Source: Gammaproteobacteria bacterium
Lineage (GTDB): Bacteria > Pseudomonadota > Gammaproteobacteria > Ga0077536
DNA: 64,000 nt
Reading direction: 5' to 3'
NCBI GenBank assembly: GCA_021773835.1
Contig: JAJFJQ010000035.1
Coordinates: forward strand, 109,781 to 173,780
Below, in pieces: positions 41,298 to 45,252 of this stretch. Below the pieces are notes generated by a model that saw only the letters and a list, made by a program, of their open reading frames with translations, was not told the DNA's origin and ran no database searches. The position numbers and the translations under genes are program-made. Within the stretch, counting starts at the first letter, position 1. Each line of letters starts with the position of its first letter.

Positions 41298-43283
41298 ATG
41301 TCGATATCAGCGCCGAGACCAATGGATAAATTTGCCGCTCCGGTCGTGTTGTCGATGTCACTCGTGTTGGCCGCGGTGGCTTATTTTCCGGGTCTGAATG
41401 GCAGCTTCGTCCTCGACGACTACACCAACATTGTTTTTAATTCCGATCTGAGGATCGACGAACTGTCGGTGAAAGAGTTGGCGCAAGCAGGGTGGTCTGG
41501 CACGGCGGGGCCACTTAAGCGACCGTTGGCGATGGTGAGTTATGCACTGAATTTTTCACTAACAGGGGATTCCGCGGCCGGATTTAAGTTAACGAATCTC
41601 ACGATTCATCTCGTAAATGGCATTTTATTATTTGCGTTGTTGCGCTTGCTTTTATTCGCGCATCGCGACCGTATCATCCAGAACCGTTTGACAGTCTCTC
41701 TCGTGGCAGCGGCCGCCAGCGGGATATGGCTGGTCCACCCGCTCAATCTCACGTCTATTCTTTATGTCGTGCAGCGGATGACAAGTCTTGCAGCGATGTT
41801 TTCCCTAGCTGCGATGATTTTTTATTGCATCGGCCGACGGCGCTTGGAAAACAACACACCGCGTGCCTGGCTGATACTGTGCCTGGTCGTCCCTGGCTTT
41901 ATCGTGCTCGCAATGCTGAGTAAGGAAAACGCCGTGTTGACGCTCCCCTTAATTGCCTTAATCGAAGGTTGTTTCTTTCGCTTACGCACGAGTGGACAGC
42001 GGCAGAGGTTCCTACTAATCGCGATGTTTGTTTCGGTGTTGGTGCTACCAATGCTAGGTATCCTAGGTTACCTCATCGTGAACCCGGATTTTCTAAGCAA
42101 TAACTTTGCTGGTCGCTCGTTCACTCTAATCGAACGGTTGCTGACCGAGGCGCGCGTGCTGTGGTTCTATTTGTTTCTATTATTGCTGCCACGGCTTGGC
42201 CATTTTGGATTGCACCACGATGATTACTTGCTGTCGACGTCGTTGGTCGAACCGGCAACGACGGCTATCGCCGTCGTGGGGATTGCGACTGCTGTGATTG
42301 TTTCGGTGATTACTGCTCGACGATATCCGATGTTCACCTTCGCAAGCGGCTGGTTTTTGATCTCGCATGCGCTGGAGTCGAGCGTTATACCGTTAGAATT
42401 AGTGCACGAGCATCGAAACTATTTGCCGGGCATGGGTATTATTTTCGGGTGCACGTATTTGGCCAGGGTGCTGCTACACGCGCATTTGGGGGGCCGAATA
42501 CAGCAGTTTTTTGCCGTTGCGGTCATAAGCTTATGCGCAATGCTGACCTTTATTCGCGCTGGCCATTGGGGCGATCCGATGACGCTTGCCATAGTCGAGG
42601 TCGAACGGCATCCCAATTCATACCGTGCGGTCTACGAACTCGGCCATAGACAATATGAGTTATACGAAAAATCGGGAAACGAGCAAGATTATTATGACGC
42701 GCTTGTCAGCTTGGAACGTAGTGCAGAGCTCGATGCGACCGCGAAAAGGCCGCTCGCGACGCTGCTGAAATTAGAACATAACCGGGGCCGAAAGCCGAAG
42801 TTGAGTTGGCAAGCGGAACTCATTCGTCGCTACAAAGGGGAATTGTTCCACCCGTCGGATACGCGGGATTTGCACGAGCTTGTTAGGTGCACGGCACAAC
42901 GCAGTTGTGTGTTTCCACACGACGATATCGTTGCCCTATTTCACGCGGCGCTTTCGAATCCTACCTTGCACCGTTATCCGAAGGCACAATTAATGGTCGA
43001 CCTTGCGATGTACCACGTAAATCAAACCGGTGATATTGACCGTGCGATAGACCTGTTGGCTCGCTCGGTGGCGTTATTTCCAACGGAGTTCGGATTTCGA
43101 AAATTATTGGCTCAAGTCAACATCATGGCCGGTCGCTTCGACGAGGTTGCTCAGGAAGTCGAGCACATGAGATCGGTGCGTACATGGCGAGATGAGTTAT
43201 ACGTGCCGGTTGATGCAATCGAAAGTATCGAACGCGACGCCGCCGACGCAAGTAGACGCTTAAATCAGATTTCGGAGGATTGA
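41298..43283 (+). CDS. GT-C-fold glycosyltransferase with C-terminal TPR-like domain (TfpW/PMT/TMTC-like), paralogue A
   Basis: 661 aa with about 11 predicted TM helices in the N-terminal 420 aa. Asp-Asp motif in the first predicted periplasmic loop (SFVLDDYTNIV). Conserved block LESSVIPLELVHEHRNYLP. C-terminal 240 aa helical/TPR-like. Alternative start at 41322. Confidence 0.7.
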   Translation: MSISAPRPMDKFAAPVVLSMSLVLAAVAYFPGLNGSFVLDDYTNIVFNSDLRIDELSVKELAQAGWSGTAGPLKRPLAMVSYALNFSLTGDSAAGFKLTNLTIHLVNGILLFALLRLLLFAHRDRIIQNRLTVSLVAAAASGIWLVHPLNLTSILYVVQRMTSLAAMFSLAAMIFYCIGRRRLENNTPRAWLILCLVVPGFIVLAMLSKENAVLTLPLIALIEGCFFRLRTSGQRQRFLLIAMFVSVLVLPMLGILGYLIVNPDFLSNNFAGRSFTLIERLLTEARVLWFYLFLLLLPRLGHFGLHHDDYLLSTSLVEPATTAIAVVGIATAVIVSVITARRYPMFTFASGWFLISHALESSVIPLELVHEHRNYLPGMGIIFGCTYLARVLLHAHLGGRIQQFFAVAVISLCAMLTFIRAGHWGDPMTLAIVEVERHPNSYRAVYELGHRQYELYEKSGNEQDYYDALVSLERSAELDATAKRPLATLLKLEHNRGRKPKLSWQAELIRRYKGELFHPSDTRDLHELVRCTAQRSCVFPHDDIVALFHAALSNPTLHRYPKAQLMVDLAMYHVNQTGDIDRAIDLLARSVALFPTEFGFRKLLAQVNIMAGRFDEVAQEVEHMRSVRTWRDELYVPVDAIESIERDAADASRRLNQISED

Positions 43284-43284
43284 A

Positions 43285-45252
43285 GTGGGCCGCGTTGCTA
43301 ACTCGAAGACCCTGCTATGTCTTATGCTTTTCGCACTTTTCATTACGGGATTTGCGTATTCCACCGGACTTACCGGTGGTTTCGCGTTTGACGACTATCC
43401 GAATATCGTACGCAACACCGCAATCACGGATGGGGATATGTCGATAAGAAGCCTGGCTCAGGTCGCATGGTCGGGCACTGCTGGTCCCTTGAAACGTCCG
43501 ATTTCCATGCTCAGCTTCGCACTGAATTACCATCTAACTGGTCATTCCCCGCGCGCATTTAAGATAACGAATCTAGCTATCCACATGTTGAACGGGTTGC
43601 TTGTGTTTTGGCTGTGCGTCTTAATCCTGCGCGCGCGAGCTGAGCGAACCGGAGAAGTTCTTGACCGGCGCCTCGTGGCTTGCGGGCTCGTGGTCAGTGC
43701 GATTTGGCTTGTACATCCAATTAATTTGACATCGGTATTGTTCGTTGTTCAGCGGATGAACAGCCTCGCTGCAACACTTTCCCTCCTTGCAGTAATTGCC
43801 TATTGCATAGGGAGGTTTCGCATTATCGCTAACGAGCGTGGGGGTAACTTACTAGTCTATCTAGGATTCCCTTTGTTTGTGGCGATCGGTGCGCTGTGCA
43901 AAGAGAATGCATTGTTAACGGTACCCTTAATAGCTTTGGTCGAAGTTTGCTTTTTCCGCTTTCGGTCAGAAAAACAAATAGATCGTTATGGCCTTCTAGG
44001 ATTCTTTGCCGTCTCGCTAGTGATACCGGGGCTTATTGTCTGTGGTTATCTGCTGATACAGGAAGACTACTTGATTGCGGGCTACGCGGGTCGTCCTTTC
44101 ACGCTAATCGAACGGCTGTTAACTGAGTCTCGAGTCATCTGGTTTTATGTTTCGATGTTGTTGCTCCCGCAACTCAGTCAGATGGGCCTTTTCCACGACG
44201 ATTTCATCGTATCCGTCAGCCTGTTTGAACCCAACAAGACACTCATTGCCGTTCTTACACTTATTGCCTTTGTTGTTTCGGCGGTGGCGTCGATCCGCCG
44301 CTATCCGTTATTCGCCTTCGCAATTCTCTGGTTCGCTATAGGTCACTCGTTGGAGTCGACGGTTATCCCATTGGAATTAGTGCACGAACATCGAAACTAC
44401 CTACCGAGCATCGGGCTACTGCTCGGTATCACCGTTGCAGGTTTTGAATTTCTAGACAAAGCGGCCAGCGTCCGATGGTTTTCGATGGCGCTTGCCGGAG
44501 GTTTATTTTTAGTTTTCACGACCATAACTTTTCTCCGCGCCGGCGATTGGAGCGATCCAATTACTTTAGCGACTGTCGAAGCGGAGCGAAATCCCGACTC
44601 TTTACGGACGATCTATGAGCTGGGACGAGTCCGCTACGGCGCGTACTTGATGCACGGCGACGACCGCGATTTTCGTGAATCGCTTGCTCTTCTGGAGCGA
44701 ACGCTAGAGTTGGACCCAAACACAAAGCGTCCGCTTGTGGAACTAATGCGTGTTACCTACCTTCACGGTGAAGAACCGAAGCCCGAATGGAAGAGGGAGT
44801 TAATTCGGCGTTATTCCGAGACACTGTTGCACCATTCGGAATGGACCGATCTAAACAACCTGGTCAAATGCCACGCTGGGAAGGACTGTGCATTTCCTCG
44901 TGAAGCAATAATTGAGCTTCTGACAGCGGCGCTTTCGAATCCGACCGCTTCGCAACACGATCGGGCTCAGCTTATGGTCATTCTTGGGATTTTCTATGTT
45001 AACGAGTTCCACGAATATGTCCCTGCGCTGGCTTTGCTCGAAGATGCGCTCAAAATTAGACCTCGAGATTTTGGCTTCAATGAAGCGCGCGCCGAAGTAT
45101 TGATACTGGCAGGCAACCTTCACGAGGCGGAACGCGCGATTGGCTATATCGAGAGTGGGACGACTTGGGATGACTTCATATTTACGCCGCCGGAGCGTGT
45201 CTCTGTGCTGAAGAGGAAACTACGTGAAGCGCAAGCCTTGAATGATCGTTAA
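43285..45252 (+). CDS. GT-C-fold glycosyltransferase with C-terminal TPR-like domain, paralogue B (tandem duplicate)
   Basis: 655 aa with a GTG start and SD GGAGGA 5 nt upstream, 1 nt after the paralogue A stop. Same architecture and motifs (GGFAFDDYPNIV, LESTVIPLELVHEHRNYLP). Roughly half the residues look identical to paralogue A by eye. Confidence 0.7.
   Translation: MGRVANSKTLLCLMLFALFITGFAYSTGLTGGFAFDDYPNIVRNTAITDGDMSIRSLAQVAWSGTAGPLKRPISMLSFALNYHLTGHSPRAFKITNLAIHMLNGLLVFWLCVLILRARAERTGEVLDRRLVACGLVVSAIWLVHPINLTSVLFVVQRMNSLAATLSLLAVIAYCIGRFRIIANERGGNLLVYLGFPLFVAIGALCKENALLTVPLIALVEVCFFRFRSEKQIDRYGLLGFFAVSLVIPGLIVCGYLLIQEDYLIAGYAGRPFTLIERLLTESRVIWFYVSMLLLPQLSQMGLFHDDFIVSVSLFEPNKTLIAVLTLIAFVVSAVASIRRYPLFAFAILWFAIGHSLESTVIPLELVHEHRNYLPSIGLLLGITVAGFEFLDKAASVRWFSMALAGGLFLVFTTITFLRAGDWSDPITLATVEAERNPDSLRTIYELGRVRYGAYLMHGDDRDFRESLALLERTLELDPNTKRPLVELMRVTYLHGEEPKPEWKRELIRRYSETLLHHSEWTDLNNLVKCHAGKDCAFPREAIIELLTAALSNPTASQHDRAQLMVILGIFYVNEFHEYVPALALLEDALKIRPRDFGFNEARAEVLILAGNLHEAERAIGYIESGTTWDDFIFTPPERVSVLKRKLREAQALNDR

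Follow-up and report, generated by a model that had tools for sequence, protein, structure and literature searches.

A tandem pair of anciently duplicated GT-C/TPR proteins downstream of pilA in a gammaproteobacterium: putative pilin O-glycosyltransferases that may differ on their acceptor side

Why would a bacterium keep two intact tandem copies of a gene for a large membrane protein directly downstream of pilA, its major type IV pilin gene, and what might the two products do? We address this question for a stretch of 64,000 nucleotides from a Gammaproteobacteria bacterium (assembly GCA_021773835.1, contig JAJFJQ010000035.1, positions 109,781 to 173,780 of the forward strand), hereafter the window, in which two adjacent genes, paralogs A and B, code for proteins of one and the same architecture, a membrane domain with a predicted GT-C glycosyltransferase fold followed by a periplasmic tetratricopeptide repeat (TPR) domain. 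The reading we favor, to which we assign a probability of roughly 0.5, is that A and B are two non-redundant periplasmic pilin O-glycosyltransferases similar to TfpW of Pseudomonas aeruginosa, which would depend on a lipid-phosphate-sugar donor and perform the same chemistry with the acceptor side split between them.

The positions of the two genes and of their motifs are collected in Table 1. The TGA stop codon of A (43281-43283) and the GTG start codon of B at 43285 are separated by a single nucleotide, and the Shine-Dalgarno (SD) sequence of B (GGAGGA, 43274-43279) lies within A, which makes translational coupling plausible; B is probably coupled to A in this way. We consider the GTG to be the likely start of B because an internal ATG would cut the first transmembrane (TM) helix. 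A BLASTP comparison aligned A and B over 636 aa with 46% identity, six gaps and E = 0; the membrane part (residues 1-425) is better conserved, at 49% identity, than the TPR tail, at 39%. The two proteins are colinear, and both have, in addition to the acidic DD loop and the HEHRNYLP block, the family residue at each of the 51 columns that are invariant in an alignment of 40 family sequences. A preliminary description of the locus, made from the sequence alone, had portrayed the genes as direct tandem paralogs 1 nt apart, the second with its own SD sequence, colinear and about half identical in the TM domain, with both motifs retained in each copy and TPR-like tails that diverge more, and it was accurate in all of these respects. 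No frameshift or internal stop was found in A or B, neither copy has lost the acidic motif, and no third copy or fragment of the genes is present within the window. A recent duplication or gene conversion was ruled out, as the nucleotide identity of the two genes is 52%, reaches at most 73% in any 30-codon window, and their synonymous sites are saturated.

The order pilA, A-type gene, B-type gene recurs in at least seven genomes of related uncultured gammaproteobacteria, namely, the window and those of the related loci L001 (the closest relative), L005, L011, L012, L089 and L090. In a neighbor-joining tree with 100 bootstraps, the A and B proteins form sister clades (bootstrap values of 100 for the A clade, 97 for the B clade, and 100 for both together), and the branching within A mirrors the branching within B. 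Hence, the tandem duplication claimed in the preliminary description is real as a pair, but it is not a recent local event, since the A and B clades are ancient and a third type of paralog exists; judging from the tree, the duplication was inherited by the lineage. The proteins of L003, L008 and L009 nest within the A clade in genomes that have no B, which suggests a secondary loss of B. The third type, C, comprises deep-branching proteins of 585-636 aa (bootstrap 100) that are about 30% identical to A and B and keep the catalytic motifs. It follows the pilA-proximal copy in several genomes (e.g. L003:10153-11961 and L009:8142-9899), follows both A and B in L089 (12256-14013), and accounts for the second genes of L013, L015, L023, L059, L064 and L076. 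Independent duplications are seen in L017/L018. Another locus, L085:660-6792, has three tandem GT-C/TPR paralogs after a pilin gene, followed by a GT2 glycosyltransferase gene of the ArnC/GtrB-like kind, and this array is independent of the A/B duplication.

Both copies appear to have been maintained by purifying selection. The ratio of non-synonymous to synonymous substitution rates (dN/dS) between the window and L001 is ~0.11 for A and ~0.06 for B, rough values given that dS is saturated. The A clade is 34.4% and the B clade 33.2% identical to 65 single-copy relatives; this near symmetry, together with the retention of conserved columns by both copies, rules out that one of them is decaying or accelerating. 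We defined 101 family-conserved columns, at each of which at least 85% of 78 outgroup sequences agree, and found that each clade keeps 100 of them. The only departure of the B clade is the replacement of His438 by Asn in six of its seven proteins, at a site within an E-x-H-P-x-S-x-R motif just past the last TM helix where 81 of 86 other family members have His, and the only departure of the A clade is Ala617 to Val, likewise in six of seven proteins. Thus, with both genes kept in seven genomes at low dN/dS and with one such departure per clade, the earlier claim that both copies are intact and not decaying holds, and neither copy looks like a degenerate partner of the other. The clades have one fixed difference, Y560 in A and H558 in B, and altogether there is a weak signal of type II functional divergence at one to three sites. 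On the other hand, between orthologs the tail is as conserved as the membrane domain in A (66% versus 66% identity) and more so in B (74% versus 67%). A tail that has diverged between the paralogs yet is conserved between orthologs hints that the two copies may differ in the part that would bind the acceptor.

The assignment of the membrane domain to the GT-C fold comes from structure prediction. The AlphaFold2 model of full-length A has a mean predicted local distance difference test score (pLDDT) of 91.0 and a predicted TM-score (pTM) of 0.90, and that of the membrane domain of B (residues 1-425) has a pLDDT of 88.7 and a pTM of 0.91. When the latter was compared with the PDB by Foldseek, 12 chains were matched at a probability of 0.99-1.00, and these are GT-C enzymes without exception, namely, yeast and human STT3, archaeal AglB, PglB, ArnT and Pmt4 (TM-score ≤ 0.53), with the oligosaccharyltransferases as the best matches; the next match had a probability of 0.14, and EmbB and EmbA came after it at ~0.6. 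The full-length model of A matched GT-C enzymes as well as TPR proteins including O-GlcNAc transferase (OGT), and the matches obtained include the Pmt4 homodimer (9i5k) and EmbA-EmbB (7bvc). These models support a GT-C fold of class GT-C_A for the membrane domains of A and B. The predicted topology has 11 TM helices, with the N-terminus inside and the C-terminal TPR domain in the periplasm. In the model of A, the periplasmic side holds all of the conserved polar motifs, namely, D40-D41, K74-R75-P76, H147-P148, Q159-R160-M161, K209-E210-N211, H307-D308-D309 and E371-H-R-N-Y375. The acidic pair is part of an F-D-D-Y motif (residues 39-42 in A and 35-38 in B) that is invariant in 40-50 homologs. 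The TPR assignment is based on weak sub-threshold Pfam and NCBIfam matches in the tail, on profile matches to TPR proteins and on the model, in which the domain has about 12 helices; a conserved cysteine pair, C531/C537, is consistent with a periplasmic location. PADLOC returned nothing for A or B.

In the clan that comprises TMTC, ArnT and the protein O-mannosyltransferases (PMT), the acceptor is bound by the conserved motifs, as are a divalent metal and the phosphate of a lipid-linked sugar, and motif M7 of TMTC, ERxxY, binds the donor phosphate (PMC7801869). Comparing by eye with the description in that paper, rather than by alignment, we found that the motifs of A and B plausibly correspond to M1, M2, M4 and M7, and in part to M3, M5 and M6.

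The family to which A and B belong is very large and has no curated model for its membrane domain. At E ≤ 1e-5, A has more than 2,600 homologs in the public protein collection, nearly all of them unnamed, a few being called 'protein O-mannosyl-transferase' (by JGI), 'TPR protein' or 'PilF'. A profile of 13 membrane-domain sequences searched against a library of 1.84 billion proteins matched 71,505 clusters of 50% identity at E ≤ 1e-3 and 9,877 at E ≤ 1e-30. Our scan of one genome per GTDB species yielded 463 family loci, and the best 80 of these are from Gamma- and Betaproteobacteria without exception. Three metagenome-assembled genomes titled 'Enterobacteriaceae' (L012), 'Klebsiella pneumoniae' (L064) and 'Halobacteria archaeon' (L081) have loci typical of the environmental gammaproteobacterial group studied here, and these labels are probably errors of binning or naming.

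Most loci of the family are linked to a pilin gene. In 69 of 77 informative loci, the first family member is preceded on the same strand, at a distance of at most 400 bp (median gap 84 bp), by a type IV pilin gene, while five of the 77 have no pilin gene near the family gene. As to whether relatives carry one or two copies downstream of pilA, a point raised in the preliminary description, A and B occur together in the seven genomes named above, about 62 of the 77 loci have a single copy, and about 15 have at least two tandem paralogs, with the catalytic motifs kept throughout. At the other end of the locus, 58 of 81 loci have a gene for a GT2 protein of about 297 aa with two C-terminal TM helices 3' of the last GT-C gene (e.g. 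L087:7927-8820), at a median gap of 18 bp and on the same strand in 95% of the cases. Among solved structures, this protein matches ArnC (2e-18), dolichol-phosphate-mannose synthase (DPMS; 2e-13) and GtrB (5e-13), and its best NCBIfam matches are AglJ and PpgS. Enzymes of the ArnC, GtrB, DPMS, AglJ and PpgS types load a sugar onto polyprenyl phosphate. Since most related loci have a pilin gene upstream and an ArnC/GtrB-like synthase gene downstream, the canonical module, as read from gene order, consists of a pilin gene, a GT-C/TPR transferase gene and a gene for a lipid-phosphate-sugar synthase. Such a module would transfer the logic of the GtrABC and ArnC/ArnT systems to a protein. Loci with two or three GT-C genes (L013, L015, L017, L023 and L085) have one synthase gene after the whole array, which favors a shared donor used with different acceptors. 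The synthases of related loci lend indirect support to the view that A and B, too, would use a polyprenyl-phosphate-linked sugar.

Pilin glycosyltransferases of comparable design have been described. TfpW of P. aeruginosa group IV (Pa5196, PA7) is a GT-C pilin D-arabinofuranosyltransferase that adds oligomers of D-arabinofuranose (D-Araf) to pilin; its 646 aa form 11 TM helices and a TPR domain in the periplasm, a DDX motif in the first periplasmic loop is essential, and its homologs have already been noted to accompany pilA in several species (bioRxiv 10.1101/2020.04.19.049825). A and B are like TfpW in the place of the gene directly downstream of pilA (here, A begins at 41298, after the end of pilA at 41150), in size (661 and 655 aa), in having the N-terminus inside, 11 TM helices and a periplasmic C-terminal TPR domain, in the acidic motif of the first periplasmic loop, and in having ArnT and the TPR domain of OGT as structural neighbors. 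They differ from it in three respects. TfpW and its named homologs have a YX6PFX7P motif in periplasmic loop 4, which a regular-expression search found in none of 99 members of the present family, where Y291-X6-P298 alone is invariant. The donor of TfpW is polyprenyl-P-D-Araf, made via DprE1, DprE2 and PRTase, whereas the present family is usually partnered by an ArnC/GtrB-like GT2; no D-arabinofuranose pathway (DprE1, DprE2, PRTase or a GtrA-like protein) was detected among the window genes scanned. Finally, TfpW is described as the product of a single gene, sometimes followed by tfpX, whereas there are two paralogs here and three elsewhere. We have placed A and B beside TfpW by its published description, and a sequence comparison would probably reveal homology.

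Likenesses to other GT-C systems are more partial. The eukaryotic O-mannosyltransferases TMTC1-4 of the GT-C/PMT clan have 11 TM helices followed by TPRs on the lumenal side, as A and B have on the periplasmic side, and by eye A and B have plausible counterparts of their motifs M1 (DD), M2 (SHKSYRP versus GPLKRP), M4 (KE..) and M7 (ERxxY versus EHRNY); a lipid-monophosphate sugar donor is a feature of TMTC, and the members of the present family that JGI named 'protein O-mannosyl-transferase' would fit this likeness. However, TMTC (GT105) differs in that A and B have no Pfam DUF1736/TMTC match at E ≤ 10, the present family is bacterial and periplasmic, and the presumed acceptor is pilin rather than the cadherins of TMTC. 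Pmt1-Pmt2 and EmbA-EmbB are likewise paralogous GT-C pairs, and the fold matches include Pmt4 and EmbA/EmbB, but they have MIR or carbohydrate-binding domains where A and B have TPRs, and their sequence similarity to A and B is undetectable. In the three-component systems GtrA/B/C and ArnC/ArnEF/ArnT, a synthase of the type that adjoins the GT-C gene in most related loci is found, but their acceptor is O-antigen or lipid A and not, as presumed here, a protein; moreover, the window lacks such a synthase, and we identified no flippase like GtrA. The O-oligosaccharyltransferases PglL and TfpO (PilO) also glycosylate pilin in the periplasm, and tfpO directly follows pilA. However, they belong to a Wzy_C-type family that uses oligosaccharides linked to undecaprenyl diphosphate (Und-PP), whereas A and B have no Wzy_C Pfam match and their predicted fold is GT-C. 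A and B would resemble enzymes of the TMTC, PMT and ArnT types in their working, yet they match the models of none of these families.

From this context, we infer that PilA would be the substrate, and the following mechanism can be proposed. A polyprenyl-phosphate-linked sugar would be made at the cytoplasmic face of the membrane and then flipped. The DD loop and the K-R-P, K-E-N, H-D-D and E-H-R-N-Y motifs would form a periplasmic active site for the lipid-phosphate donor, with a divalent metal probably bound there as well, while the TPR domain would hold the protein acceptor, so that a Ser/Thr residue of PilA might receive the sugar before pilus assembly. By their conservation, the candidate glycosylation sites are three serines of the alpha-beta loop (Ser70, Ser78 and Ser80) and two of the C-terminal loop (Ser138 and Ser139), all of which are invariant in eight close orthologs of PilA. 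A and B might then act on different sites of PilA, or one might add the first sugar to the protein and the other lengthen the glycan. That they would not be redundant is supported by their sister clades with mirrored subtrees, low dN/dS, kept columns, lack of gene conversion and divergent tails. The sub-functionalization suggested in the preliminary description is viable, but it is one of several readings, since a heterodimer or sequential action would fit equally well; with only one site fixed differently between the clades, there is no strong sign of divergent specificity in the sequences.

Several observations weigh against the favored reading. The GT-C/TPR transferase downstream of pilA that the preliminary description had announced agrees with the predicted fold and the pilA context, but neither a curated model nor a PDB sequence supports the GT-C part: Pfam and NCBIfam gave nothing for the membrane domain, Pfam even at E ≤ 10, and PDB sequence searches by phmmer with A, by a full-length profile and by a membrane-only profile of 50 sequences returned TPR proteins or nothing. 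The GT-C assignment therefore depends on predicted structure, modest Foldseek E-values (~1e-3) and motif mapping by eye. As for the donor, a tblastn search found no ArnC/GtrB-like synthase gene in the window, and none is present within 10 kb in the closest relative; the window lineage appears to have lost the adjacent synthase gene, of which a partial copy is found 5.6 kb downstream in L005, a genome with both A and B. The adjoining Wzx-type glycan cluster (see below) would better suit a lipid-linked oligosaccharide. As for the acceptor, loci with two pilin genes carry one GT-C gene, so copy numbers do not track; the conserved serines of PilA are the same in genomes with A and B and in those with A only; and the single fixed difference means that there is no clear sequence signature of divergent acceptor specificity.

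The main rival explanation is that A and B form a heterodimer that works as one enzyme, the pair being kept because the complex needs both subunits. We regard this as unlikely, although less so than any of the other rivals. Pmt1-Pmt2 and EmbA-EmbB, paralogous GT-C pairs that use lipid-phosphate-sugar donors, act as heterodimers, and both the Pmt4 homodimer and EmbA-EmbB are among our structural matches; TfpW interacts with itself in two-hybrid assays; the order A then B is fixed in all seven genomes, with mirrored subtrees and few clade-specific fixed differences; and the gene overlap in L012, like the 1-nt spacing and the SD sequence within A that the window and L001 share, would suit equimolar synthesis. 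However, the coupling is not conserved, as the gap between A and B is ~80-110 nt in L005, 65 nt in L011 and 190 nt in L089. The single copy at about 62 of 77 loci indicates that a homomer or monomer suffices for the family, the lineages of L003, L008 and L009 kept A and lost B, and the full set of catalytic motifs in both proteins means that neither would be a mere scaffold. A division by donor is quite unlikely in our estimate. Under this explanation, A and B would use different lipid-linked donors and place two sugars, or a sugar and an oligosaccharide, on pilin, one of them perhaps acting en bloc on a glycan from the Wzx-type cluster. The change of His438 to Asn in the B clade, in a conserved motif beside the membrane domain, would suit such a division, as would oligosaccharyltransferases being the best structural matches and the absence of an adjacent monosaccharide synthase gene in the window and its closest relative, beside a Wzx-type glycan cluster. 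On the other hand, the donor-side motifs KRP, KEN, HDD and EHRNY are identical in the two proteins, multi-paralog loci elsewhere have one adjacent synthase, and similar glycan clusters also follow single-copy loci. An acceptor split, a heterodimer and different donors would each fit the present data.

Somewhat less probable still is a target other than pilin, be it another periplasmic or outer-membrane protein or, as for ArnT, a lipid or polysaccharide, in which case A and B would owe their place after pilA to a recombination hot spot beside a surface-glycan cluster. The link of A and B to PilA comes from gene context, a terminator-like hairpin separates pilA from A, the downstream region, with a G+C content of ~0.46 versus 0.51, has the look of an O-antigen-type cluster, and the five of 77 loci that have no nearby pilin gene also fit. 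But a hot spot alone would hardly produce same-strand linkage to pilin at 69 of 77 beta- and gammaproteobacterial loci, a TPR domain points to a protein acceptor, TfpW sets a precedent, and hairpins behind pilin genes have been described as a means of tuning accessory genes by lowering their expression (PMC11841053). Least probable is that A and B are functionally redundant and kept for dosage. Their identical conserved motifs and near-symmetric divergence from single-copy relatives (34.4% versus 33.2%) are what redundancy would lead one to expect; against this, they are only 46% identical with saturated synonymous sites, both clades were retained under purifying selection in at least seven lineages, and no gene conversion has homogenized them.

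Beyond the favored reading of A and B as acceptor-split pilin transferases, we entertain a wider and rather speculative idea about pilA-linked paralog arrays in general (A+B, A+B+C in L089, and the three genes of L085). Such arrays might constitute a periplasmic assembly line in which one paralog primes the pilin and the others extend or decorate the glycan, possibly as heteromers. A similar logic is found in archaeal AglB with AglS and in mycobacterial AftA with Emb, and here it would serve a bacterial pilus. To our knowledge, TfpW is the only GT-C pilin glycosyltransferase that has been studied, and its priming, polymerizing and transfer steps are unsettled; arrays of two or three paralogs offer a natural dissection of the steps that it is thought to combine, and if the assembly line were true, specialized enzymes would share out what has been proposed for TfpW alone. 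Pilin glycosylation alters pilus function and shields cells from pilus-specific phages (bioRxiv 10.1101/150227; PMC11841053). What the present locus adds is a modest variant of a known system, namely, TfpW-like transferases in ancient, co-retained paralog arrays, in a lineage that has no adjacent donor synthase. The finding is incremental, as it comes from an uncultured organism and the chemistry proposed is that of known enzymes; it may be useful for work on pilin glycosylation and GT-C enzymes and overturns nothing.

Table 1. Positions in the window of the A/B gene pair, its motifs and nearby features
Feature	Coordinates	Strand	Remarks
Paralog A	41298..43283	+	661 aa; membrane domain residues 1-425 with 11 TM helices; predicted periplasmic TPR domain ~427-661
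Paralog B	43285..45252	+	655 aa; architecture as A; GTG start
SD sequence GGAGGA for B	43274..43279	+	Inside A, at its 3' end; 5 nt from the GTG start
Acidic pair D40-D41 of A	41415..41420	+	First periplasmic loop, putative GT-C catalytic motif; invariant in alignments A1, A3 and A4; by eye, counterpart of motif M1 of TMTC, ArnT and PMT
Acidic pair D36-D37 of B	43390..43395	+	Counterpart of D40-D41 of A
HEHRNYLP block of A	42405..42428	+	Residues 370-377, last periplasmic loop; E371, H372, R373, N374 and Y375 invariant
HEHRNYLP block of B	44383..44406	+	Residues 367-374
Asn436 of B	44590..44592	+	In place of the family His (His438 of A, 42609-42611); see clade comparison in the text
pilA	40722..41150	+	Major type IV pilin, 142 aa, presumed acceptor; Pfam Pilin 1.4e-22, N_methyl 1.9e-10
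Sigma-54-type -24/-12 promoter-like site TGGCACGGAATATGCA	40591..40606	+	116 bp upstream of pilA; 1 mismatch
GC-rich hairpin and U tract	41175..41208	+	3' of pilA; terminator- or attenuator-like; from RNA folding
Fused membrane (MFS-like)/spermidine-synthase-like gene	45359..48301	+	980 aa; 106 bp after B; Pfam Spermine_synth 2.2e-18, NCBIfam MFS_SpdSyn 2.1e-22

The genes around the pair are in the order GDSL-like gene, pilS, pilR, pilA, A and B, with pilB, pilC and pilD 16 kb upstream. Two sites in the window match a sigma-54-type promoter best, each with one mismatch, and TGGCACGGAATATGCA is among them. The number of matches over the whole window is not above chance, so that only the position of TGGCACGGAATATGCA is suggestive; the site is consistent with control of pilA by PilS/PilR, the genes for which lie directly upstream. 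The RNA fold of 41151-41230, which covers the hairpin downstream of pilA, has an energy of -29.9 kcal/mol (z = -5.1), with none of 200 shuffled sequences as stable, and a simple consensus terminator scan did not list this hairpin. The promoter-like site, the hairpin and the coupling signals are consistent with an accessory-gene arrangement, without being proof of one.

The gene for the 980-aa protein that follows B has a weak PADLOC 'mad2' match (2.5e-10). Its counterpart lies 3' of the pair in L001, where it is split into 393 and 584 aa, and upstream of pilA in L014; we regard it as a neighbor whose functional link to A and B is unproven. Downstream of the pair, where the G+C content drops (window positions 45000-64000), there is a Wzx-type glycan cluster with two UDP-GlcNAc 2-epimerase-like genes, GT4 and GT2 glycosyltransferase genes, a gene for a Wzx-like flippase, and genes for O- and C-methyltransferases, an aminotransferase, an acetyltransferase and RmlC. 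Two GT2 genes were considered as donor synthases and rejected, the one at 51129-52001 of the window because its product is an ordinary GT2 of the soluble type, and the one near the pair in L088 because it is unrelated to ArnC/GtrB.

Some further features of these loci recur or vary among relatives. Between sucCD and pilS, the window has a cysteine-rich open reading frame of 80 aa (35835-36077, + strand), a version of which with 68-70 aa is present in L001, L003, L005, L089 and L090, and a GDSL/SGNH hydrolase-like gene (36104-37312, + strand) that recurs in L005, L012 and L090. In the closest relative, the glycan region downstream of the pair carries an inserted IS66-family element with TnpB and a transposase (L001:19543-21803); its transposase gene is split in one of two assemblies, and fragments of a GT4 gene adjoin the element.

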